This document shows, in pieces, positions 1-11,771 of a stretch of DNA of 11,771 bases. The stretch's first letter is position 1. Each line of letters opens with the position of its first letter. The DNA is from Planctomycetota bacterium (GTDB lineage: Bacteria > Planctomycetota > GCA-002687715 > DRQF01). The position numbers and the translations under genes are program-made. Under the pieces are notes generated by a model, which did not search any database, had not been told where the DNA came from, and saw nothing but the letters and a program-made list of their open reading frames with translations. The DNA is taken from assembly GCA_027001995.1 (NCBI GenBank), contig JALTLO010000111.1, forward strand, positions 38,082-49,852. Reading direction: 5' to 3'.

Positions 1-730
1 TCGCCGCTGGCCCAGGCGAAGCCACCAAAAATAGACGGTTCGAAATCGGAATTGCCAATGACATACATGAACATGACGTCAATGCCAAACCCCTCGACAT
101 CCAAATCGTCTTCACTTCCAGTGACGTAGGAAAAGTCGCCCCACATGGTGAAGGCACCGATTTGCTGTTGATAGGAAGCACCCACATGTAAGCGATCTAA
201 ATCAACGAGGCGTCCCCCAGACCGTTGGAGAGCATAGAGAAAAAGCTCGCTATCGATGAATGGCTCAAGGTGAGCCCCAAACAAATAGTTGGTGATGCCA
301 TCCTCTCGCTGACCTTCATCAAATAACTTTTGGGACACAGACCATTCAAGCAACGCTCCTTCCAGGTTGAGAAACAAGCGAACACCATCAATCTCATCGT
401 CGAAAACCCACTCTCTCCCCTGGTCAAACTTCTGCCGCCCGATCTCAAGAGCCATGCCATCAAAGGGGAAATCCAAAGCGACAAAATAAGCTTGATTGAG
501 TGAGATCCTTGAACCATGTTGATCGTCAATGCGTTCGTCGAAAATAGCCCAATCCCGCCTTACACTTACCTTCGTGAATGCGAAAAACTGTGGCGAGAAC
601 TCAAAAGAAAACTCCATCTTAAAACTGGGTTCTTGGATGAGACGATCACGAGGTCTACCCGCTCTCAAGTTGTGATTCCGGCGCCACTCGAGATTCCATT
701 GAAATTCCCCCCCCAAGGTGATGCCATCGG
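1..730 (-). other. N-terminal part of an alginate-export family (AlgE-like) outer-membrane beta-barrel
   Basis: Amphipathic strands (ITLGGEFQWNLEW, FKMEFSFEF, LNQAYFVA, HVGASYQQ, GFGIDVMFMY), a GRQ motif at 440-432 followed by W-x-F-D...DGVR, and FAWASG(D/E) at the edge. Confidence 0.7.
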
Positions 731-3650
731 CTATGCGAATGCCGTTTCCCGGTCGCAAATCGTCATCGTCAATCCGCAAGATTTTCTGCAATCGCTGGTT
801 TGAACGGGGACGCAATCCGCGGTCCTCAGGCTTCGGAGGATCAACCCCTTCAACATCCCAAACGACTTTCGTGTTTGATCGAAACCGTACGGGACTTCCA
901 GCGATCTCAAAGTGTTGCCGACTATAGCGGAGACTCTCTATTTGTCCTTGTAACTCATCACGTTCCTCTGGTTTTCGCTCTCGAAGAGTCAGTTTCCTCA
1001 GAAACAAATGCCCTTCCAGCTGAATACCTTCTGCTTTGCAGAATGAGGGCAAAAGTGAGGGTAGCTCCCCGGGGTCGATCGTCTCCCCCATGGCCGTCTT
1101 AAAAATGGAGTCGTCTCGTATCTCCATGACGTAAGCACCGAGGCGTACTTCTCCACTTTCGACATCAAACTCCAATAGATCGGACTTCACCTCGACCTCG
1201 TCGTCCGCCTCTTCGATTTCTATTCTCTCGGCGTGAAACGTATCACCGCGGAATTCTCCCTCCACTTCGACCGTGTCCTTCTTACGCAAATAGGAAACCC
1301 CCAATTCGATTTCAGCCCCGGCGACTTCATCCTCCAAATCAATCGCCGGTGGCGGAAGCAGGGAAACACAACCGGCGTTCAAGAATAGCATCGATAGGAC
1401 GATCAAGGGGGCAAGTCGCCCCAAGAGATCCCGAGCAACTCCCTGCCATCGTTTGCGGAAAAGGTAAACGCAGCCCAGGCGAAATATCGCCCGAGTTCTT
1501 TCGGCTTCAATCTCTCTTTCTTCGAGAGCCTCCCCCCCAGATTCATAGCCTTTGATGAAATCCTGTCGCCAAACACCCGAAACATCTCGGGACAACCCCA
1601 ATTGCCAAGATCGCAATTCTATGTGGGCCAGCATGTTTCCCACATCCCGCGCCTTGGGACCCCAAGAAACCCCTTCAACATCAATGATCCCTGCTCGATC
1701 GCCATTCAAAATCACGTTCTTGTCGTGAAAGTCTCCATGCAGGACACCTACCCGAGATCCCGCAGCCTGGGGTAGAGAAGAAAAAACATCACTGAGAAGT
1801 CGGCCTTCCGAGGGGAAGAAACTCAATGTTCGCGCGAACCAACCCCGGAGGTCATCTTCACGGGAGTCCGGGAGATCGTTCTGCACATCGAGTGCTTGAA
1901 ACTTCGCCAGCCCCATACCCGCAGCAAAAAAGTTGGGTTCGCGGTCATGCCAAATGAGTTCATGAAGCGATTCGCCTGGCATTTCCCTCACGTCCAGATA
2001 GCCCCATTCTCCATCGAAGCCGAGAATCTGAGGCAGCAAGAATTGATCGTCACCCAAAGCCGCATTCAAAAGAGTCAGACGTTGGGCAGCCTTTTTCGCC
2101 TTCTTCGGTGGCAAGACCTTGCGATAGAAAGCTCTTTCCTCAGTTTGAACGCGAACAACTGCCCGGCGTCCCACCCGTCGCGAGATCAGCTCACCTTCTT
2201 CCAGAGCTTTGGCCAATCCTGGTAAAGCACTATCTGCCTCTGGCTTAACAAGACAGAATCGTTTGCTCTGCGGGTCAAAACTGCCACAGCCTTCAGTACC
2301 AGAACTTCCATCCCGCCCGAATGCCGCCCAGGGGGTCTTGCCACTGGGATAAAGAAGAGTCCAAACCCAATCATCATTGTTTTTTATTGGCAACGTCGAC
2401 AAAGATTCCAATGCTGCATCGAGCATCCTCGCCGGGGACAACGGATGGGCCGCTCCCAAGCCACGCCGAAGGCCTCTGGCTGCCCCTGCCGCGAAACCCA
2501 GGGCAATTCCAATCGGCAGGACTCGCCTGATCCTCTTAGTGAATTTCTCCCCCCACCGCGCTTGGAACATGGCGGAAAAACTTGCATAGCTAGACCGAAG
2601 TTCGACTGGCTGCTCTAATCCTCTCATGTGGATTTCTGCAGCGAAATGACCAGCATCCAAAGCCGGATGAGACATGGCGCATCGTTCAAAATCGATCAAA
2701 GTCATCTGCCCAGAGGAGACAAGAAACTGCTTAGGGTGAAGGTCACCATGGGTGACACCTAAGTCTCCCGAATGAACCCACCCCAAGCGCTCCCCAAGCG
2801 CCAAACTCAGGCGCTTGATTCTCTCCTCCAAAGAGGCGTCTTCAAAGGTCTTCAAATCGTTAAGGCGCAATTCGACAAGCTGCTGGGCCGGGACGATTCG
2901 CAGGTCGGGGTCACGAACTGACCCCATGGACGCGACAACCTGGGCCAAGTTTCCAGCATCTTCGATTCGAGTGAAGGTGCAAAACTCCTCGCCATCCCGC
3001 AGTTCTTCCAACTGGATACATCCGAATTGGAATGCCCCGTATTGTTGAGGGAGGAATTCGGCCAATCCATTTCTTCGCAGGAATTCTGTTGCCCGGCCAA
3101 TCTCCGCTCCACGATTGTCGGCAAAGACCCGCATGAAGAGCTTCAGCGAGCTTTTCTTTCCTTCGGTATCCACCAACCCAAGAGTGAGCTTGCTCAAGAG
3201 ACGATGCTCGGGTTTATAACGAACAATGTCGAGACTCGATTTCCTCCCACGAATTCTCTGGCCCTCGAAAAATGGGGAACGTCCCAATATGCGTTTAAGT
3301 TTGCTGAGGTCAGCCGCCAAACCCAATTCACGGAGTCCACCATCGTAGGGAAACAGATAGAGAATTGTTCGACTGTCGGACATCAACTGAACGCTCAAGC
3401 CGAATGAAGTGGCCTCGTTCTTGAGTTGGGCCCGTTTCGCCATCACCTGAGCTGCTCGATTGGAGTCTACATAGCGCTTCAGGTAGCCGCGCAATTCAGA
3501 GGATTCCCTCTGTACGAGCCAGGCGGCAGTTTTCGTTCGGGGAGTCGCCCGATAATACTCCCAAGATAAGCCCAAAGCACCACAACCCACCTCACCCAAG
3601 AACCGGAGAAACTCCTCACGCTCGGGAAACTCAAGAGTCTCTCGGTTCAT
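1..3650 (-). CDS. Large fusion protein, truncated by the window edge (>=1216 aa): two APH/choline-kinase-like phosphotransferase domains + internal signal/lipobox segment + DUF5666-like domains + alginate-export (AlgE-like) beta-barrel
   Basis: ATG at 3650 overlaps the ABC stop (ATGA, 3647-3650). I found no in-frame stop between 3650 and 1. Starts MNRETLEFPEREEFLRFLG. Kinase 1 motifs: YLFPYDGGL, RYKPEHR, HGDLHPKQFLV (His at 2750), LIDFE. Kinase 2 motifs: DSALPGL, RRVGRRAVVR, HGDFHDKNVI (His at 1739), IIDVE, RLGCVYLFR. Then RLAPLIVLSMLFLNAGC, then VEVEGEFRGDTFHAERIEIE, then alternating aromatic beta-strands with GRQKFDQGREWVFDDEIDGVR and FAWASG at the edge. Confidence 0.9.
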   Translation of the reverse strand, partial: MNRETLEFPEREEFLRFLGEVGCGALGLSWEYYRATPRTKTAAWLVQRESSELRGYLKRYVDSNRAAQVMAKRAQLKNEATSFGLSVQLMSDSRTILYLFPYDGGLRELGLAADLSKLKRILGRSPFFEGQRIRGRKSSLDIVRYKPEHRLLSKLTLGLVDTEGKKSSLKLFMRVFADNRGAEIGRATEFLRRNGLAEFLPQQYGAFQFGCIQLEELRDGEEFCTFTRIEDAGNLAQVVASMGSVRDPDLRIVPAQQLVELRLNDLKTFEDASLEERIKRLSLALGERLGWVHSGDLGVTHGDLHPKQFLVSSGQMTLIDFERCAMSHPALDAGHFAAEIHMRGLEQPVELRSSYASFSAMFQARWGEKFTKRIRRVLPIGIALGFAAGAARGLRRGLGAAHPLSPARMLDAALESLSTLPIKNNDDWVWTLLYPSGKTPWAAFGRDGSSGTEGCGSFDPQSKRFCLVKPEADSALPGLAKALEEGELISRRVGRRAVVRVQTEERAFYRKVLPPKKAKKAAQRLTLLNAALGDDQFLLPQILGFDGEWGYLDVREMPGESLHELIWHDREPNFFAAGMGLAKFQALDVQNDLPDSREDDLRGWFARTLSFFPSEGRLLSDVFSSLPQAAGSRVGVLHGDFHDKNVILNGDRAGIIDVEGVSWGPKARDVGNMLAHIELRSWQLGLSRDVSGVWRQDFIKGYESGGEALEEREIEAERTRAIFRLGCVYLFRKRWQGVARDLLGRLAPLIVLSMLFLNAGCVSLLPPPAIDLEDEVAGAEIELGVSYLRKKDTVEVEGEFRGDTFHAERIEIEEADDEVEVKSDLLEFDVESGEVRLGAYVMEIRDDSIFKTAMGETIDPGELPSLLPSFCKAEGIQLEGHLFLRKLTLRERKPEERDELQGQIESLRYSRQHFEIAGSPVRFRSNTKVVWDVEGVDPPKPEDRGLRPRSNQRLQKILRIDDDDLRPGNGIRIADGITLGGEFQWNLEWRRNHNLRAGRPRDRLIQEPSFKMEFSFEFSPQFFAFTKVSVRRDWAIFDERIDDQHGSRISLNQAYFVALDFPFDGMALEIGRQKFDQGREWVFDDEIDGVRLFLNLEGALLEWSVSQKLFDEGQREDGITNYLFGAHLEPFIDSELFLYALQRSGGRLVDLDRLHVGASYQQQIGAFTMWGDFSYVTGSEDDLDVEGFGIDVMFMYVIGNSDFEPSIFGGFAWASG
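855..1285 (-). other. DUF5666-like small beta domains, probably periplasmic; boundaries approximate
   Basis: Patterns VEVEG...FHAERIEIE, CKAEG...LFLRKLTL and ELQGQIESL...FEIAGSPVRFRSNTKV resemble DUF5666 repeats. Recognised from memory, not by HMM. Confidence 0.55.
1368..1424 (-). other. Internal signal-peptide-like segment with lipobox-like end (aa 743-761: LGRLAPLIVLSMLFLNAGC)
   Basis: A basic residue, a hydrophobic run of about 12 residues, then LNAG-C (Cys codon 1370-1368). It sits exactly between the kinase part and the exported-type domains. Confidence 0.6.
1430..2380 (-). other. Phosphotransferase domain 2 (APH/choline kinase-like superfamily) of the fusion ORF; boundaries approximate
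   Basis: Canonical Brenner-type motif HGDFHDKN (1739-1716) followed by IIDVE. FYRK is the likely ATP-binding lysine strand. Confidence 0.85.
2390..3650 (-). other. Phosphotransferase domain 1 (APH/choline kinase-like superfamily) of the fusion ORF; boundaries approximate
   Basis: Catalytic-loop motif HGDLHPKQ (2750-2727) followed by the metal-binding DFE (2693-2685). Confidence 0.85.
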
Positions 3651-5386
3651 GTGGTCTCTCTTTCTCGTATCGAGACCACAGCGCCACCGCGCATCTCAAT
3701 AACCTGATCAGGAGCGACATCATCCAAAGAGGTATGGCTCACCACAATGGTCGTCCGGCCGTTGGCGATTCGGCGAATGGCTCTGGCAACATCCAAACGC
3801 GCATCTGTGTCCAATCCGGCCAAAGGTTCGTCGAGTAGCAAGATTGGCGCGGATCGGATTGCAGCCCGTGCCAAGGCAACAAGGCGCTTTTGGCCGCCAG
3901 ATAATTTATCGCCAGATTCCCCTATCTCAGTATCAAGACCTTCGGGCAAACCAGCCACAACTTGATTCAGCCCCGTTGCTGCCAGCGCGTCATCGACATT
4001 TTTGACGGAGGCATCTGGAAAGCCGAACAAAATGTTCTCTCTCAGTGTACCGGCAAAAAGAAGATTGTCCTGAGGCACATAGGCGAAACGAGATCGCAAA
4101 GATCCCAGCTCAAAAGTCTGGATATCGTCACCATCCAAGCGCACAGCCCCCCTTTGAGGAGTGAACAAACGCAAAAGGAGGGATAGGCTGGTAGACTTAC
4201 CAGAGCCGTTCTTTCCGGTTACAACGCAGAGAGCCCCTGCTGGGATTCGAAACGACAAGTCCTCAACCGCAGCGTTGTTCTCATTGTAGCTAAAGCTGAC
4301 CTGTTGAAATTCGATATCGCCACGAAAAACCGGAGCCTTTATTCCACCATCTGAATATTCCGCCGGTAAGTCCAAAACCTCAAACAGCCGTTCGGCACAT
4401 GCTGCCGCCTTGGACAATCGCACGCCATCACGGCTGAGTTTCCTAAGAGGTTTGTAGACGGCGCGAGCATAGGAGATGACCACTAAGAGTGTCCCAACCT
4501 TAAGATCGCCACTTAAGACTTGATTCGCTCCAACAAGAAGAATCAAAGCCAAGCCAGCCCCGGTGACAACTTCAGCTTGTAGACTAGCCATAGAAGCGAT
4601 TTTGGTGGCTAGGACACCGGCACGCTCTCCAGACCGTGAAAGGCCAGCAAAAAGCTTGGCACTTCGGCGCTCAGCACCGAACGCTTTGATGCCACGAATC
4701 TGAGTCAGCAGTTCGGATGCCATTGCTGCGGCGTTTCCTTCTTTGCGTCTTTGCTTGGAAACTGCCTTCTTCATGCGCCCCCCAGAGCTTCGAACTGACC
4801 AGGCCAAGAAAGGTAATGGCACAAGAGTGAGAAGACCTAAGAAAGGTGAGATCCAAACCATCAAGCAGAAAGTCCCGACGAACATGAGCAGGCGTTGGAT
4901 GAGAGAAACCCAACCCGAAAACAAGATGTCCCGCACCATGTTCACATCACCCATCACCCGAACCAGCAAGTCGCCAGTGCGAGCAGAATAGTGAAATGAG
5001 AGGGGCAAGAGCTGAAGATGTTCGCATACGTGACGCCGGACCCGGGTGGTAACTTTGCGCCCCACTTGGGCCAAGGCAACTTGACTCAAGCGATTCAGAA
5101 TACCTAAGGACAAAGGAATCAACAGCATGGCCAAAGCAGAGAAATTCAAGAGCGTCTCGGCAGTCATGGAACTCAAGAAGCCCGGCAAACTGCTTGTGTC
5201 TCCGGAAATAACATGATCCACGACAAGCTTAATGGGCCAGGGGCGCAGAAGCTCCAAGAGAGTCATACCGATGGAAGCCCCAACGCCCCCAGCAATGAGT
5301 GCTTTCTGATCTTCCATGAAACCACCGAAGTGATGGAAGGACTTCCTCGCCGCTGCGAAGGCACCTTTTCGTATCCAAAATTTCAT
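3647..5386 (-). CDS. ABC exporter, fused permease/ATP-binding half-transporter (MsbA/Sav1866-like architecture), 579 aa
   Basis: N-terminal multi-TM region (LLRPWPIKLVVD, TGDLLVRVMGDV). Walker A GKNGSGKST, Q-loop YVPQD, signature LSGGQ, Walker B ILLLDEP, H-loop VVSH. ATGA overlap with the upstream GT4 at 5383-5386. Confidence 0.95.
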   Translation of the reverse strand: MKFWIRKGAFAAARKSFHHFGGFMEDQKALIAGGVGASIGMTLLELLRPWPIKLVVDHVISGDTSSLPGFLSSMTAETLLNFSALAMLLIPLSLGILNRLSQVALAQVGRKVTTRVRRHVCEHLQLLPLSFHYSARTGDLLVRVMGDVNMVRDILFSGWVSLIQRLLMFVGTFCLMVWISPFLGLLTLVPLPFLAWSVRSSGGRMKKAVSKQRRKEGNAAAMASELLTQIRGIKAFGAERRSAKLFAGLSRSGERAGVLATKIASMASLQAEVVTGAGLALILLVGANQVLSGDLKVGTLLVVISYARAVYKPLRKLSRDGVRLSKAAACAERLFEVLDLPAEYSDGGIKAPVFRGDIEFQQVSFSYNENNAAVEDLSFRIPAGALCVVTGKNGSGKSTSLSLLLRLFTPQRGAVRLDGDDIQTFELGSLRSRFAYVPQDNLLFAGTLRENILFGFPDASVKNVDDALAATGLNQVVAGLPEGLDTEIGESGDKLSGGQKRLVALARAAIRSAPILLLDEPLAGLDTDARLDVARAIRRIANGRTTIVVSHTSLDDVAPDQVIEMRGGAVVSIRERETT

Positions 5387-6492
5387 ATCAGAGAATTCTG
5401 GCCTCGACGAAGAGAATCGATGTGCTCAACCATACGTCTCACATTCGATTTCCAGGTATGATGCTTGAGGACGTGTTCACGCCCCGCTCGAGCCATTCTT
5501 TGGCTCTCTTCTGGCTGCTCCAGGAGAGCGACAATACTTTCCGCCAAATGTCCGGCATCACCGGGGCGGCAGAGACGAGCGTGCCCGCCCGTCAAGAATT
5601 TAATGTCCCCAATCAGCGACGCCACCAATGGAACTCCTGCTGCCAAACTCTCAATGACCTTAAGTGGACAAAAATAGAAAGAATCATTTTGAGCATAAGG
5701 GGCTAAGGAAAGATCGCAAGAACTCAAACGAACAATTGCATCCTCATGGCAAAGAGGTCCGGTCACCTCGAGGTTTTCCCCCAGTCCCGCTTCTTCGAAA
5801 CGAGAGCGGATATCGTCACCTCCGGGTCCACCACCAATCACGAGCAAGCGCACGTTTTTCTTGGCGGCTAGCAAGGACTCCATGGCCTCAAGAAGCAATG
5901 CCGTTCCATGCCAGGGTTTCGGATGTCCCAAGAAAGCAAGAGTTTTCACTTCTTGAGTGGTTTGGCGCTTGGAAACGGATGCAAATTCTGACTGGCAAAC
6001 GCCATTGGGCATGAAGACTACTCCCCGGCTATGACCCCGGACATCTTTTATTCTCTCTTGCAAATAGGTGGAGACAGGAAAAACGAAATCAGCCTCTCGC
6101 CAAAGCCGATTTTCGACTTTTTGACTTTCTTCCGTGATCGTTGTGGGACGATGCAAGCTGGCCTCGGCGAAGAGAGGAGAATTGACCTCAAGTGCAAAAA
6201 GCCTACTTGTTTGCAAAGCCGCATCGATGCCAGAAGCCCCGTTGAGGGAATAACGTTCAAAAACCACCTCGGCATCGAATGATTCGATCGAGTCAACAAG
6301 CTGCTCCCGTGTCACCCCAGTCTTCACCTTAAATCGGAGCCCATCCAAAGACTTTGGCGACCTTTGAGTATGAAGAAGAACAGAATTCCCTTGCGCCACA
6401 AAGGCATTGAGAACACTGCGTAAGTGAATCGCCGCTCCCTTGCTCCCGTCTGGAGCAATGCCACGATCAGCATTCACTGCGAGAATTCTCAT
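5383..6492 (-). CDS. Glycosyltransferase family 4 (GT-B fold), 369 aa
   Basis: MRILAV start, GAAIH, ERYSL, LEVNSP, FLGHPKPWHG, and the donor-binding region YFCPLKVIESLAAGVPLVAS. ATGA overlap at 6489-6492. Confidence 0.92.
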   Translation of the reverse strand: MRILAVNADRGIAPDGSKGAAIHLRSVLNAFVAQGNSVLLHTQRSPKSLDGLRFKVKTGVTREQLVDSIESFDAEVVFERYSLNGASGIDAALQTSRLFALEVNSPLFAEASLHRPTTITEESQKVENRLWREADFVFPVSTYLQERIKDVRGHSRGVVFMPNGVCQSEFASVSKRQTTQEVKTLAFLGHPKPWHGTALLLEAMESLLAAKKNVRLLVIGGGPGGDDIRSRFEEAGLGENLEVTGPLCHEDAIVRLSSCDLSLAPYAQNDSFYFCPLKVIESLAAGVPLVASLIGDIKFLTGGHARLCRPGDAGHLAESIVALLEQPEESQRMARAGREHVLKHHTWKSNVRRMVEHIDSLRRGQNSLI

Positions 6493-7691
6493 TCTATCCC
6501 GCCACGTTGTTCCATTGTTGTTTCTTGGTCAGCAAAAACTTGAACAATCTGCGGAAGAGTTTTTCTACGATCAAATAGTTCTCGAGTTCGAATGGGTCCC
6601 CGCTCAGAACAAGTGCTCCATAAGACTTGATCATCCAGTAAGCTCTTCATCGCAACGGCAGTGGTTTCAAAATCGTCCACAGGAACCAAGATCCCACATT
6701 CATCATCCCCGACAATCTCTGGAATGCCGACCATAAGCGTTGATACAACCGGGAGCCCACAAGACAGTGCTTCGATAAGGACAGTCGGCAAGGCATCACG
6801 GTTCCCGTCTTTACCCTCACGACATGGGAGGACGAAGAGCTTGGCACTTTCCATCAAGGCCTTCACTTCCTCTCTCGGTAATGGACCTGTCATTGTCACG
6901 ATGTCATCTAACTCAAGGTCATGAACGAGCTGGGTGAGTGCCCCCTGTTCATCACCTTGGCCAACAATGGATAAACGAAGAGACTTGCCATTTTGACGCA
7001 GCAAGTGACAAGCACGAATGAGGATGTCAAAGCCCTTTTTCTCCACCAAACGGCCCACAGCCAATACATGGTTTTCTTCTCGCTCGATTTTTCGCCCAAC
7101 ATCGAAAGTGTCCTCAAGGGGCAGACCGTTGTAGACCATCCTCACCTTCTCAGGGCACTCGCTCAAAAACCGATCGATGATGTAGCGGCGATTAAAATAG
7201 CTGACAGTCACGACCGACTTTGCAGCCTTGGCGACTCGACGAAACACCCCTTTGTCAATGCCATGGCGAAATATATCCTTAGCGTGGGCTGTGACTGAAA
7301 ATGAAGGTCCGCCGCTCAAACGACAGACGGCGGCCACATGACTCGCCACCGTCATGAAATGAGCGTGAAGGTGGTCGACCGAATGATCAGCGCACAACTG
7401 TAGAACCCCTTGCCCTTGGGCCACGATTTTAGGCCGTCTTTGCTCAGGGAGTGCCTCAATCAGTGCACGAAGCTGTTGAGAGTCTTCGACCACTCCACCA
7501 TCGGACTCCTTAGGCACAAGGACGATCAGCGCTTTTAACTTCTCTAAGTCACCATGTCTCGGTTCGTCGTCAGCGACTTTCAGCGTAAACACGACGACTT
7601 CATGGCCAAGCTCTTCCAAGCCTAAGATCTCATTCAGAATGAAGGTTTCTGAAAGTCGAGGAAACTTCTTCAACACATAGGCAATCTTCAT
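6489..7691 (-). CDS. Glycosyltransferase family 4, WcaL/AmsK-like subfamily, 400 aa
   Basis: MKIAYVLKKFPRLSETFILNEI, HLHAHF, TAHAKDIF, VGRLVEKKG, RDALPTVLIEALSCGLPVVST. ATGA overlap at 7688-7691. Confidence 0.93.
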   Translation of the reverse strand: MKIAYVLKKFPRLSETFILNEILGLEELGHEVVVFTLKVADDEPRHGDLEKLKALIVLVPKESDGGVVEDSQQLRALIEALPEQRRPKIVAQGQGVLQLCADHSVDHLHAHFMTVASHVAAVCRLSGGPSFSVTAHAKDIFRHGIDKGVFRRVAKAAKSVVTVSYFNRRYIIDRFLSECPEKVRMVYNGLPLEDTFDVGRKIEREENHVLAVGRLVEKKGFDILIRACHLLRQNGKSLRLSIVGQGDEQGALTQLVHDLELDDIVTMTGPLPREEVKALMESAKLFVLPCREGKDGNRDALPTVLIEALSCGLPVVSTLMVGIPEIVGDDECGILVPVDDFETTAVAMKSLLDDQVLWSTCSERGPIRTRELFDRRKTLPQIVQVFADQETTMEQRGGIE

Positions 7692-8893
7692 CGCGCATTC
7701 TCGCGGAACATTGACTCTCCTGGTCCCAAATCAGTGAAGGCGCCGTCCGCAAGAAGCTCTTCGACCTCCTCGACCAAACGCTGGGCCCCCTTCATTACCA
7801 TCGAAGGAACCGCCTTGGCCTTGGGGTCAATGCAATCGTCGATGAATTCTTGGAATGTCCCGTCGGAGAGTTCACTCAAACGACACCACGAGAAGCCGCA
7901 AACTTTGCTCAAGCGCTGGGCCCGAAGCAACTGCTCAACACGAGGGACTTCCCGTGGGACAAGGAGGGCTCTACGATCCGAAGACATAATCTCTGCAACT
8001 GTGTTGTACCCTGCCATGCCAATAACTCCTCTGGCAGCAGCCACACGGTGAGCAATTTGCGGATCGAAGCGAATAAGCTGAACATCGTGGCCATCCAAGT
8101 CGTCCACTTGCGCCCGGATGGTCTCGAATCGTCTTTCAGACAAGAACGGACCGGTAACGATATCGACCGCCACATCACCTGCCGAACGCCGGGAGAGAAA
8201 ACCAATGAATGAACGCAAGAGCGCATGCCCATCGCCCCCTCCCCCGGCGGTCACCAAAAAACGCCTACTTGCTTGGCATCGCGGGCTCTCTGGAGCCAAG
8301 TAGCCAAGATGCCGGACTTTCTGTTCGCCTTTGGTGTCGATCAGGGCCTCAAGTCCCATCTCGACGGCCGTGGTTGGAACCCAGGATTCCCCATACACGA
8401 ATACGCGATCGTAGTCGTCTTCAATGGCAGAGAACCCACCGGTTTTGCGCCAAGCCCTCTCGGTCAATTCGGCATCGTCAACGATGTCACGCATTCCCAA
8501 GACTAATTTCGGCTTTGGATCCGCTTCACGAATCGACTGCAACAAGGGAAACAACTCGCCCTCAACTCCAACCGGGGCATGATCGACAATGATAAGGTCT
8601 GGAGCAAAGTCGCGAAAAGTACTGCACAGCAAGTTAGCCCTTAACGCCACCACCTCTTCCAAGGACAAATCGAGATCACGAGCGGCATAGGTTCCATCGG
8701 TCTGCTTAAGAATGGAAGGCATCTTGAGTGTGTCGCAGTTTGGCGGCAACTCAAAGGCATGGGCGCGAGGCGATCCCGTGGCAATCAAGACCGAAGCACC
8801 CAAATGGGAAGTCGCCAATGCGCGGGCCATCACCAGGCTGCGCCTGAGGTGGCCCAACCCATATGTATCATGACTATAGATAAGAACGCGCAT
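7688..8893 (-). CDS. Predicted glycosyltransferase, COG4671 / GT28 C-terminal-like (GT-B), 401 aa
   Basis: MRVLIYSHDTYGLGHLRR, LGMRDIVD, VTAGGGGDG, VTGPFL, GMAGYNT, VPREVPRVEQLLRA. ATG at 8893 is preferred over the track's 8908 because GGAG lies 9 nt upstream. Confidence 0.88.
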   Translation of the reverse strand: MRVLIYSHDTYGLGHLRRSLVMARALATSHLGASVLIATGSPRAHAFELPPNCDTLKMPSILKQTDGTYAARDLDLSLEEVVALRANLLCSTFRDFAPDLIIVDHAPVGVEGELFPLLQSIREADPKPKLVLGMRDIVDDAELTERAWRKTGGFSAIEDDYDRVFVYGESWVPTTAVEMGLEALIDTKGEQKVRHLGYLAPESPRCQASRRFLVTAGGGGDGHALLRSFIGFLSRRSAGDVAVDIVTGPFLSERRFETIRAQVDDLDGHDVQLIRFDPQIAHRVAAARGVIGMAGYNTVAEIMSSDRRALLVPREVPRVEQLLRAQRLSKVCGFSWCRLSELSDGTFQEFIDDCIDPKAKAVPSMVMKGAQRLVEEVEELLADGAFTDLGPGESMFRENAR

Positions 8894-8902
8894 GAACCGT
8901 AT

Positions 8903-8906
8903 CTCC
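8903..8906 (-). promoter_or_regulatory. Shine-Dalgarno site for the 8893 start
   Basis: Minus strand reads TTGGAGATACGGTTCATG: GGAG with a 9 nt spacer. Confidence 0.65.
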
Positions 8907-8931
8907 AAGAAAACTTGCCAACAGGGTCGAT

Positions 8932-10662
8932 CTATTGGGGGAAGTAAACAAACTCATCCACATCGACTTCACTGTTGTCCATAGGATCCCGCAGGCGAAT
9001 CCTAAATTTGTGGGGTAGTCCCGATAAGGAGGCCGGGAAGGGAGGCAAAGGTACCGCAAGAAACTGAGCAAAGATAACTTGCCCAGCGGCGAGAACGGTG
9101 GGTGAGCCTGTCAGCAATGTGGTGATAGTCCCAAATGGACCTTCCACCTCCGCTTCCAAGAAAGTTCCCGTTGTAATCCCGTTCGGATTGTAAATCGCGA
9201 CGGTGATGAACAGTTGGGGAGACCCAGCAAGCACCACTTGCGGTTCAGGGAATGCCGGGTCATCGACATACACGAACATCGGCAACAATTGTAGGCTACC
9301 ATTGAAGGTCGTCGGCCCTGCCACCACAACGGAAGGATAGACGCGATCACGGGCCAGACTTCCCTTCCTCGTCTTCAGAGTGATATCGAAAGTTCCCGTA
9401 GGTACGATGATGGCATAGTCGCCATTAGCATCGGTCAGGTTGTCGCCAGTTTCGATAGGAAGCCCAGAAACAGAATCGTTCAGAAGTACAGCGCAGCGAA
9501 CTTGAGGGGCAACGGATGCAAAGGCCGTAATGCGCCCGGACAAAAGTTGTCCCAATTGCACCGTCACGTTGCCCAAGTTCGTCGAGGCCGCGAAGGATTG
9601 AACAGTTGTCGTCTTAGCCAAAAGTGAGCTGGCGAGAGTAGGCTGAAAAACGACCCGGTAGTTGCCTGCAGGAACAACAACCTCGAATGTCCCATCATAC
9701 TCCGTGGCATCTCCGGGGGTATAGACAATGGCGTCTCCTGCATCCGACCTGACATCCAAGTCAGCGTTCGCCACAGGAAAACCATTTCCATCCACCAAAG
9801 TGCCGCTGATGGAGATCCCGGCCTCCATGGCCACAAACCCCATATTGGTGGGGGCATTGTTGACGAAGACAATCTCCTGATAACCGACGTAGAGTTGTCC
9901 TGCTGACCTTTCGAATGACACGGTGTAGAAACCTGCGGGAACAATGACTGAAAAGACTCCCGCGGCATTGGTGTTGTCACCTGGAGTTTGAATACGAACA
10001 CCTGTGCTCAGATCGTCCACGTCGATATCAACCCCGGACAGAACCGCAGACGTGACGGAATCTCGTACAGTCCCCGACAGGATGAAACCCTGGGGTAGAA
10101 CGATCGTGCCGACAGACATGGAAGCAGTGACGTTCAGGGTTTGTATCTGGGCTACAAGAATCTGGCCAGCGGCTGGTTCAGCTCGCAGGCGCAGCAGGCG
10201 CGCCGGCACCCGCAATGAGAATGACCCGGTCACTGTCGTCTTGTCCCCAGGGGTGTTGAACTTGATCCCTGTAAGGTCATCAAAAACGTCCAAGTCGCCA
10301 TTCACAATAGGAGCGTTGCCAGTGTCGCGCACGATGCCAGAAAGCAGGACCCCAGCCTCTAAGGTCACGTTGCCCATCGAACTCGGCCCGTTCACCACGA
10401 AGCCTGCGACGATGCCCGGTGCCAAGAGCATTCCAGCAGGTGGAATAATCTGAAAACTGTAAGTACCGCTGACCAAGTTCAAGGTAAAGCCACCAACGGC
10501 ATTGGTGACAACCGAAGAACCTTCCCGATAAACCTCCACGGTCGCCCCTGGAATAGGCTGGCCCAGGGAATTCACCACAACTCCCGTAACCGTGTCGGCC
10601 CAAGCGACGTTGGTCAAAGCCAGCACCAGGACCACAAACAATATCTTACTTCGTATCCACAC
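8932..10662 (-). CDS. Secreted protein with five carboxypeptidase-regulatory-like (transthyretin/CnaB-type beta-sandwich) repeats and a C-terminal beta domain, 576 aa
   Basis: GTG at 10662 with AAGGAG 8 nt upstream. Sec signal peptide MWIRSKILFVVLVLALTNVAWA|D. About 90-aa repeats start TVTGVVVNSLGQPIPGATV, LLSGIVRD, ILSGTVRD, SISGTLVDGNGFPVANA and LLSGRIT, most with T-x-x-x-G-x-[FY] and P-[AT]-G-x-[YF]. Confidence 0.85.
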   Translation of the reverse strand: MWIRSKILFVVLVLALTNVAWADTVTGVVVNSLGQPIPGATVEVYREGSSVVTNAVGGFTLNLVSGTYSFQIIPPAGMLLAPGIVAGFVVNGPSSMGNVTLEAGVLLSGIVRDTGNAPIVNGDLDVFDDLTGIKFNTPGDKTTVTGSFSLRVPARLLRLRAEPAAGQILVAQIQTLNVTASMSVGTIVLPQGFILSGTVRDSVTSAVLSGVDIDVDDLSTGVRIQTPGDNTNAAGVFSVIVPAGFYTVSFERSAGQLYVGYQEIVFVNNAPTNMGFVAMEAGISISGTLVDGNGFPVANADLDVRSDAGDAIVYTPGDATEYDGTFEVVVPAGNYRVVFQPTLASSLLAKTTTVQSFAASTNLGNVTVQLGQLLSGRITAFASVAPQVRCAVLLNDSVSGLPIETGDNLTDANGDYAIIVPTGTFDITLKTRKGSLARDRVYPSVVVAGPTTFNGSLQLLPMFVYVDDPAFPEPQVVLAGSPQLFITVAIYNPNGITTGTFLEAEVEGPFGTITTLLTGSPTVLAAGQVIFAQFLAVPLPPFPASLSGLPHKFRIRLRDPMDNSEVDVDEFVYFPQ

Positions 10663-10670
10663 GACACAGT

Positions 10671-10676
10671 CTCCTT
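10671..10676 (-). promoter_or_regulatory. Shine-Dalgarno site AAGGAG for GTG 10662
   Basis: Minus strand reads TCAAGGAGACTGTGTCGTG, directly before a signal peptide. Confidence 0.8.
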
Positions 10677-10847
10677 GAATCACGTCCACTTTGGCATTCC
10701 CACGACACACTTGATGAGGAAGGCGTGCACATGTGGCCCCGGGTAGCTGGCTCATTCGGTGCTCGCCTTGAGTCATAGAAGGCAACGGCTCAATCGAACA
10801 AATGCGGTCAGAATTTCTTTCGGGAAAAAAATGACCCAATGGACCAT

Positions 10848-10863
10848 AGCAACCACTATGCCA
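10848..10863 (-). promoter_or_regulatory. Sigma-54 (RpoN) -24/-12 promoter
   Basis: Minus strand TGGCATAGTGGTTGCT against consensus TGGCAC-N5-TTGCW: exact GG-N10-GC spacing, one mismatch, pointing into the operon. Predicted TSS is about 10837. Confidence 0.75.
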
Positions 10864-10967
10864 CGAATGCCCAGTTGAAGAATCCCGATCGAAGAAAGAG
10901 AACAATTCCCTTGAGAGGCTTTGCTCCTGTGATGGTAGGAAGTTATGGCGATCAAGGCTTGGCTCCA

Positions 10968-10993
10968 TCCTGCAACTCGTAGAAGTTGCAGGA
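10968..10993. promoter_or_regulatory. Perfect inverted repeat; candidate activator binding site or hairpin
   Basis: TCCTGCAACT-cgtaga-AGTTGCAGGA, centred about 145 bp upstream of the predicted TSS, with no U-tract on either side. Confidence 0.4.
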
Positions 10994-11020
10994 GGGCTAG
11001 GCCCACGCCCACCCGGCGTC

Positions 11021-11037
11021 TGTACGGATTCCGAACA
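11021..11037. promoter_or_regulatory. TGT-N11-ACA palindrome; candidate enhancer-binding-protein UAS
   Basis: TGTACGGATTCCGAACA = TGT-a-CGGA-t-TCCG-a-ACA, about 190 bp upstream of the predicted TSS. Confidence 0.45.
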
Positions 11038-11102
11038 CCGTGCAGGATTGACACCATCACCATTTTTTTGCTTCCCCAAGCCTCTTGGCTTTGGGGGTTT
11101 CT

Positions 11103-11771
11103 CAAAATGACCACGAAGCGGCGGGGCACGACCAAGATGGAGGGGTATTTTAGGGGTCCTTGGTTCTTTTTGGATGGCCAAGAAGCGGCGGGACGCCACT
11201 GCTCCCAGTTTTTGGGCTTGTTGGATAGCCACGAAGCGGCAAGGCACGACCAAGAGGGAGGGGTATTTTAGGGTTCCTTGGTTCTTTTTGGATAGCCAAG
11301 AAGCGGCGGGACGCCACTGCTCCCAGTTTTTTTGGACTTGTTGGATAGCCACGAAGCGGCGCGGCACGACCAAGATGGAGGGGTATTTTAGGGTTCCTTG
11401 GTTCTTTTTGGATGGCCAAGAAGCGGCGGGACGCCACTGCTCCCAGTTTTTTTGGACTTGTTGGATGACCACGAAGCGGCGGGACACTTCCAAGATGGAG
11501 GGGTATTTTAGGGGTCCTTGGTTCTTGTTGGATAGCCACAAAGCGGCGGGACGCCACTGCTCCCAGTTTTTGGGCTTGTTGGATGGCGAAGAAGCGGCGG
11601 GACACGACCAAGATGGAGGGGTATTTTAGGGGTCCTTGGTTCTATTTGGATGGCCAAGAAGCGGCGGGACGCCACTGCTCCCAGTTTTTTTGGGCTTGTT
11701 GGATAGCCACAAAGCGGCGGGACACTTCCAAGATGGAGGGGTATTTTAGGGGTCCTTGGTTCTTTTTGGAT
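11103..11771. repeat. Tandem array of bipartite 118-120 bp units with REP-like hairpins (at least 5.5 units, continues past the edge)
   Basis: Units start at about 11103, 11221, 11341, 11461, 11579 and 11699. Periods are 118/120/120/118/120, the difference being T5 versus T7. Each unit holds two copies of a TTGGATRGCCAMGAAGCGGC-like core. AGCGGCGGGACGCCACTGCTCC is invariant at 11184, 11302, 11422, 11542 and 11660. Confidence 0.93.

Follow-up and report, generated by a model that had tools for sequence, protein, structure and literature searches.

One Planctomycetota Gene Encoding Two APH-Fold Kinases and an AlgE-Like Barrel, Joined by a Putative Internal Lipoprotein Signal

How can two kinases of a cytoplasmic type and an outer membrane β-barrel belong to one protein chain? 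The question is raised by a reverse-strand gene at the left end of an 11,771-nucleotide stretch of DNA (the window; positions 38082-49852 of contig JALTLO010000111.1, here C111) from a Planctomycetota bacterium (GCA_027001995.1, here G000; a 5.2-Mb metagenome bin of 204 contigs, 92% complete). An initial annotation, made from the sequence of the window, had seen in this gene a topological paradox and had proposed three ways out of it: a chain anchored in both membranes, a polyprotein cut at an internal signal, or overlapping products from an internal start. Here, we report that the gene appears to be an evolutionarily fixed fusion of three once-separate adjacent genes (kinase, kinase, and lipoprotein pore), that the hydrophobic segment at its main junction is probably the retained lipoprotein signal peptide of the formerly separate barrel gene, and that the polyprotein is the best supported of the three options. 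The features of the gene are as follows (aa, amino acid residue).

3..3650, minus strand: fused open reading frame (ORF), aa 1-1216 of ~1358; the remainder continues beyond the left window edge, past a spurious run of 10 N's
2463..3572, minus strand: kinase domain 1, APH/TCAD9-like, aa ~27-396, with HGDLHPKQ (301-308) and IDFER (319-323)
1413..2369, minus strand: kinase domain 2, canonical APH, aa ~428-746, with HGDFHDKN (638-645) and IDVEG (656-660)
1422..1424, minus strand: in-frame TTG (Leu743); no other internal start that could yield a functional signal peptide (MGRLAPLIVLSMLFLNAGC) is plausible
1368..1418, minus strand: putative internal lipoprotein-type signal, comprising Arg745, L746-G760 (15-aa hydrophobic stretch), and L-N-A-G-Cys761
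852..1310, minus strand: putative periplasmic beta-rich domains, DUF5666-like, aa ~781-933 (weak Pfam DUF5666 match at 788-811; strands in the structure model)
3..740, minus strand: AlgE-like barrel, first ~12 strands, aa ~971-1216 (structure model, Foldseek, and Pfam on the continuation)

The frame runs without interruption for 1216 codons from the ATG at 3650 to the window edge, as first described, and the ATG shares 4 bases with the stop of the upstream ABC transporter gene. The gene ends a short way past the window edge. That edge is a 10-N scaffold gap with the same 6 bases repeated on both flanks (positions 9990-9999 of L002, a longer excerpt of the locus). Left of the N run, the barrel resumes in a different frame for 143 residues, ends in the aromatic ...FQAEWNF, and is followed by a stop at ~37639 of C111 (L002 9558), so that extending the contig, as the initial annotation had proposed, yielded both the stop and the terminal motif. 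The gap is spurious and splits the barrel halves into different frames, because P0003 (1358 aa, 93% identical to the window protein) is uninterrupted across the gap position and because a 187-base contig from sequencing run X3, of a different study, bridges the gap and omits exactly 16 letters (the 10 N's and the 6 repeated bases). The whole protein is therefore ~1358 aa long. The two ORF parts were left unjoined, and P0003 or each part separately was used in analyses. Runs carrying the stretch were mainly labelled hydrothermal vent metagenome, with no RNA run listed among them. Only run X1 held most of the stretch (0.88 of sampled words), and parts of L002 9770-9990 were without contig cover in it.

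The domain order, kinase 1, kinase 2, signal-like segment, DUF5666-like beta domains, and AlgE-like barrel, was confirmed with Pfam, AlphaFold 2 (AF2), and Foldseek. Kinase 2 matched the Pfam APH profile (PF01636) over aa 498-707 (89.2 bits; cut-off, 23.2) and carries the HGDxxxxN motif and the metal-binding Asp of that family; kinase 1, which has Gln for the motif Asn, matched TCAD9 and Choline_kinase-like over aa 164-342, both below their cut-offs. In an 11-sequence alignment, H301, G302, D303, Q308, D320, and R323 of kinase 1 and H638, D640, H642, and D657 of kinase 2 were invariant. An AF2 model of aa 1-760 (predicted local distance difference test score [pLDDT], 88.6) contained two predicted kinase-like alpha/beta units, for which Foldseek gave as best matches methylthioribose (MTR) kinase, choline kinase, APH(3'), macrolide phosphotransferase, maltokinase, glucosamine kinase, and TvaE (E, ~1e-7; template modeling [TM] score on target, 0.42-0.64). 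By sequence, the kinase half gave 0 matches among PDB chains at an E of ≤0.01, a weak Kdo/WaaP profile match (E, 0.003), and 6 matches in a protein search, too few for a broad count of stand-alone kinases. The final helix of kinase 2 (FRKRWQGVARDLL) leads directly into the signal-like segment.

For the C-terminal part, P0003 aa 744-1358 was modeled with AF2 from an alignment of 51 sequences (pLDDT, 88.8; predicted TM score, 0.77). Along the hydrophobic stretch, the model predicted a helix; this is followed by a disordered linker, by beta-rich domains (aa ~781-933; strands at model positions 38-190, with pLDDT mostly >90), and, from ~971 onward, by a barrel that takes up the rest of the chain, with low-confidence linkers at model positions 20-35 and 202-208. 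Nineteen strand elements over model positions 228-614 formed a predicted closed, ~18-strand AlgE-like fold, in agreement with the barrel first proposed. The 17 top-ranked Foldseek chains were all AlgE (E, 3e-24 to 3e-21; TM score on target, 0.74-0.83), followed by OprD-type porins at ~1e-11. Of the three Pfam families named in the initial annotation, APH was found over its cut-off, whereas DUF5666 matched weakly (more strongly in relatives), and Alginate_exp (PF13372) did not match the window's own part. It did match the ORF continuation outside the window (positions 265-383/395; 47.8 bits; cut-off, 25.2) and the complete P0003, and in the related genomes G001 and G003 it matched single ORFs (81.2 and 59.8 bits) in which APH was likewise over its cut-off. 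The remaining barrel strands and the C-terminal aromatic beta-signal lie just outside the window, and P0003 to P0006 end with the same ...FQAEWNF. Alginate biosynthesis genes (alg8, alg44, algK, and others) were not found around the gene; because its neighbors are GT4, GT28-like, and MsbA-like ABC genes, the barrel is an Alginate_exp family member by fold and not an alginate exporter by context. Among the DUF5666 literature matches listed (titles and abstract openings), none was relevant to the fusion.

To place the fusion among its relatives, the whole protein was searched in 41 related genomes (G000 included), and a query of 300 residues centered on the junction was searched in 23 genomes of the order, with the following outcome.

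Family f1, genomes G000, G001, G003, G007, and G008: junction intact within a single frame, 40-100% identity
Family f1, genome G002: contig broken precisely where the junction lies, its two ends overlapping in residues CVSIV
Families f2 and f3, seven genomes: match divided at the junction into two pieces
Other 10 genomes, including 3 from f1: query not matched

Homologues spanning the junction, for which the initial annotation had suggested looking, thus exist unbroken in four genomes other than the source, and the junction is also unbroken in P0003, P0004, P0005, P0006, and P0009, which come from separate assemblies. Fused genomes G000, G001, G003, and G008 hold a single copy only. Elsewhere, the same parts are separate: kinase-kinase and barrel are two genes in G013, G018, and G010, and kinase, kinase, and barrel are three genes in G012 and G017. 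Split kinases stop 10 to 15 residues past a conserved RRxW..L...LL helix, without a hydrophobic segment, and split barrel genes start with ordinary lipoprotein signals (e.g., MVRALVLVSLVAISTLAGC and MKKIIVLAAALLAFTSC). Searched exhaustively with HMMER against 1.84 billion representatives, the C-terminal part had 390 matches; among the best 150 of these, a kinase fusion was present only in P0003, P0005, P0006, and the truncated P0009, and the next matches, P0010 to P0020, were stand-alone (32-42% identity; most ~610-640 aa). These stand-alone DUF5666 plus Alginate_exp lipoproteins (P0010 to P0020 and those of G010, G012, G013, G017, and G020) are orthologues with 32-41% identity across the entire C-terminal part and share the lipobox, the C-x-x-F-x-P motif, and the gene cluster with the window protein; the sister-family barrels differ in being separate genes (549-637 aa) with an N-terminal signal, next to kinases that are one or two separate soluble proteins. 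In a quick maximum-likelihood tree, the fused forms and G002 formed one clade (Shimodaira-Hasegawa-like approximate likelihood ratio test, 99), and one fusion event is enough for all fused forms. The clade spans three genera, with no reversal down to 40% identity across the junction. From these comparisons, the fusion seems to have cost the last ~10 residues of the kinase, the kinase stop, and the barrel start codon, while the barrel signal peptide was retained.

The initial annotation had recognized a lipobox in the retained segment, which stood, with a corrected position: its Cys is residue 761 (codon 1368-1370), and the junction occupies 1368-1418. A basic n-region, a hydrophobic stretch within the 7-22 residues of lipoprotein signals, and a lipobox ending in Cys are all present, but the signal is not at the precursor N terminus, lying instead behind two kinase domains. 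Ten fused sequences were compared (G000, P0003 to P0007, P0009, G003, G007, and G008; eight tabulated, P0007 and G007 by eye). In all 10, the Cys was kept, as was the x-x-[FLI]-x-P motif that follows, and in the 8 measured, a basic residue was followed by 13 to 16 uncharged or hydrophobic residues before the Cys. The 12 closest split barrels (11 tabulated; P0020 by eye) all have an N-terminal lipoprotein signal, with a hydrophobic stretch of 12 to 19 residues in the 11 measured. Because Cys, motif, and stretch length are kept in fused and split forms alike, the segment is still a signal peptide in length and motif, without change into a long membrane span. The topological puzzle is real. The paradox largely dissolves if the segment is the old signal of the barrel, and an N-in/C-out signal anchor behind a cytoplasmic kinase domain is ordinary topology. 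Profile searches of the genome found the processing genes (one LspA, three Lgt paralogues, and one Lnt over its cut-off) and one Omp85/BamA.

We therefore favor, at a probability of about 55%, a polyprotein whose internal signal enters the Sec pathway and is lipidated and cut at Cys761, leaving tethered kinases and a lipoprotein pore. The whole chain would be translated, and the two APH-fold kinases would fold in the cytoplasm. The internal signal would insert N-in/C-out and thread the C-terminal ~600 residues through Sec; Lgt would then lipidate Cys761, and LspA would cut between Gly760 and Cys761. The N-acylated DUF5666 plus 18-strand AlgE-like pore would be freed for insertion into the outer membrane by BAM, and the former signal peptide would tether the kinases to the inner membrane beside the ABC exporter, where a sugar or lipid-linked glycan could be phosphorylated before export. 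In G003, the sequence that leads from the end of the kinase to the hydrophobic stretch contains neither ATG nor GTG nor TTG, and its barrel can therefore come only from the long chain.

Several points weigh against this polyprotein. The lipobox of the window protein (L-N-A-G-C), like that of P0007, has Asn at -3, which is atypical for the lipobox consensus; the other eight fused sequences fit the consensus better than these two. The kept Cys could have a different cause. LolA (PF03548) was not found in the 92%-complete genome, which leaves the lipoprotein route to the outer membrane undefined, and no copy of the gene was found in 3 of the 9 f1 genomes (G000 counted); the cluster is therefore dispensable. 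Our literature searches turned up neither a lipoprotein signal used internally nor an LspA cut at a signal hundreds of residues from the N terminus, and a term search of a signal-peptide review (PMC9360617) gave no mention of internal signals in the text so covered.

Four other explanations have to be set against the polyprotein. An internal start before the hydrophobic stretch (here, the TTG of Leu743) could make the pore lipoprotein, with the long read-through chain minor or irrelevant, and a product from TTG 1422-1424 would indeed begin with a normal lipoprotein signal; other candidate starts are GTG and TTG in G001, ATG in G007 and G008, and a Met in P0005 and P0006. The position of this Met or Val, however, is a hydrophobic site of the last kinase helix, occupied by Leu in all split kinases, and is not a relic start. 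Nor is the start conserved, given that G003 has none while its genus-mate G007 has ATG, and the nearest GGAG lies 14 nucleotides upstream of the TTG. Without a stop codon, moreover, the long chain would be made regardless and its fate would still need explaining, and in none of the five unbroken fused genomes, down to 40% identity, has the stop been regained. We consider an internal start unlikely, though with a small real chance of being correct. An uncleaved trans-envelope chain, with cytoplasmic kinases, an inner membrane helix, periplasmic beta domains, and an outer membrane barrel, is in our view improbable. The chain is continuous, its two low-confidence linkers (model positions 20-35 and 202-208) could give it reach, and a precedent has been proposed in the long MlaD of Veillonella parvula, as outlined in PMC10665443. 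Against it, the stretch stayed at 13 to 16 residues and was not lengthened to a stable span of ~20, the lipobox Cys, needless in an uncleaved anchor, was kept in every fused sequence, and the ~210 mostly folded residues from Cys761 to the first barrel strand would probably be short for the periplasm unless the linkers were fully stretched.

The stop loss could also have been a near-neutral accident, tolerated because signal processing restores both ancestral products, with no new function gained; signal-peptide proteases may then clear or release the kinase stub. In mechanism this overlaps the favored explanation; the sole difference is whether selection maintains the tether. Genes in the cluster overlap by 4 bases, such that a one-base change can fuse them, and two further fusions described below, that of P0077 to the same barrel family (a singleton) and that of two GT4 genes in G010, fit such an origin. 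An accident sits poorly, however, with a fusion that has persisted without reversal in one clade across three genera and down to 40% identity, and we rate it as quite improbable. Lastly, a false join, missed stop, or indel at the junction might be suspected in a 204-contig metagenome bin with a scaffold gap inside the gene, and X1 may be the bin's own source. The same unbroken junction in G001, G003, G007, and G008 and in the five P-numbered proteins from separate assemblies nonetheless practically excludes an assembly or sequencing artefact, against which also speaks an X1 contig that is identical to the window over 1-1543.

The remainder of the window is taken up by the gene cluster to which the fused gene belongs.

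3647..5386, minus strand: MsbA-like ABC exporter, 579 aa (Pfam ABC_membrane and ABC_tran)
5383-6492, minus strand: GT4 glycosyltransferase gene
6489-7691, minus strand: GT4 glycosyltransferase gene
7688-8908, minus strand: GT28-like glycosyltransferase gene
8932..11541, minus strand: CarboxypepD_reg protein, 869 aa, three repeats, first gene of the cluster

The ABC exporter matched NCBIfam MsbA_lipidA at 333.9 bits, below the 602-bit cut-off. Start/stop overlaps of 4 bases chain five genes, from 7688..8908 through the fused gene, which suggests translational coupling and would make one-base fusions easy. The cluster (CarboxypepD_reg, GT28-like, two GT4, MsbA-like ABC, kinases, and barrel) recurs in split and fused relatives in a varying order, with the ABC gene after the barrel in G013, and a similar CarboxypepD_reg gene heads it in G013, G010, and G003. 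By analogy, we infer that a glycan or glycolipid assembled by the glycosyltransferases on the cytoplasmic side is phosphorylated by the kinases and is exported by way of the ABC protein and the AlgE-like pore. The lipopolysaccharide (LPS) core kinase WaaP does its work on the cytoplasmic side of the membrane, ahead of the flipping of LPS by MsbA; the gene order here parallels that kinase-before-MsbA sequence, and the weak Kdo/WaaP profile match fits it.

Four observations were made in and around the cluster. In G010 (L023 3646-5964), its two GT4 genes are fused into one of 773 aa with two GT4 modules, so that fusion recurs within the cluster. Some 2.6 to 7.2 kb left of the window (L002 2813-7405, minus strand) lies a gene for a 1530-aa protein with Ser/Thr kinase, TPR, GAF, sigma-54 activator AAA+, and HTH_8 domains; a TPR-GAF-sigma-54 activator also adjoins the cluster in G013 (L020 7-2715), and this protein may regulate the cluster. 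Directly downstream of the fused gene, a 601-aa ORF (L002 7463-9268, minus strand) had no Pfam match at an E of ≤0.01. P0077 (992 aa) combines a GT28-like enzyme, a signal-peptidase-I-type signal (...PLGARA|DEA), DUF5666, and an Alginate_exp barrel and is a second kind of cytoplasmic-enzyme-to-pore fusion; it is a singleton, all of the 12 relatives listed for it being stand-alone barrels (580-598 aa), and was therefore not used in support as an independent recurrence.

If the internal signal is used as proposed, the gene would offer a conserved example from nature of LspA/Lgt processing at a great distance from the N terminus, in effect a bacterial envelope polyprotein. It would serve as a test system for the N-terminal cargo that the lipoprotein pathway tolerates, for a leftover signal peptide as the membrane tether of an enzyme, and for the assembly of an outer membrane barrel out of a precursor with a cytoplasmic start. 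A chain that instead remained uncut would represent a novel type of trans-envelope protein, with glycan phosphorylation physically coupled to the exit site. The stepwise fusion (three genes to two to one) is in addition a Rosetta-stone link that ties two uncharacterised APH-fold kinases to an ABC exporter and AlgE-like pore route in Planctomycetota, and it suggests that the exported substance is a glycan or glycolipid in phosphorylated (anionic) form.

Compared with known systems, the kinase half shares the APH profile, HGDxxxxN, the Mg-binding Asp, and its fold matches with phosphotransferases of the APH/choline-kinase/MTR-kinase fold and differs from them in having two tandem kinase domains, the first with Gln for the motif Asn. 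With AlgE, the alginate porin of Pseudomonas aeruginosa, the barrel shares the Pfam family, the ~18-strand barrel, and the terminal aromatic residue, but at 16-18% identity; it adds a DUF5666-like, presumably periplasmic part, and in place of the plain signal of AlgE, it has a lipobox that is internal, behind 745 residues of kinases. Single proteins that reach both membranes are exemplified by VirB10, which spans them, but we know of no enzyme-to-pore trans-envelope protein. The cytochrome b-c1 precursor FbcH of Bradyrhizobium, a polyprotein, is reportedly cut at an internal signal peptide once it has been inserted into the membrane, by signal peptidase I and not LspA, with both halves staying in the inner membrane and no outer membrane product. 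The view that no chain of this general kind had been described was too strong: the long MlaD of V. parvula has been proposed to be an inner-membrane-anchored MCE protein with a C-terminal outer membrane barrel (PMC10665443). As presented there, it shares with the window protein an inner membrane anchor and an outer membrane barrel on one chain. Long MlaD differs in its long helical bridge, is not known to have a lipobox or a cytoplasmic enzyme, and presumably stays uncut. It is a precedent for an uncleaved chain and not a relative.

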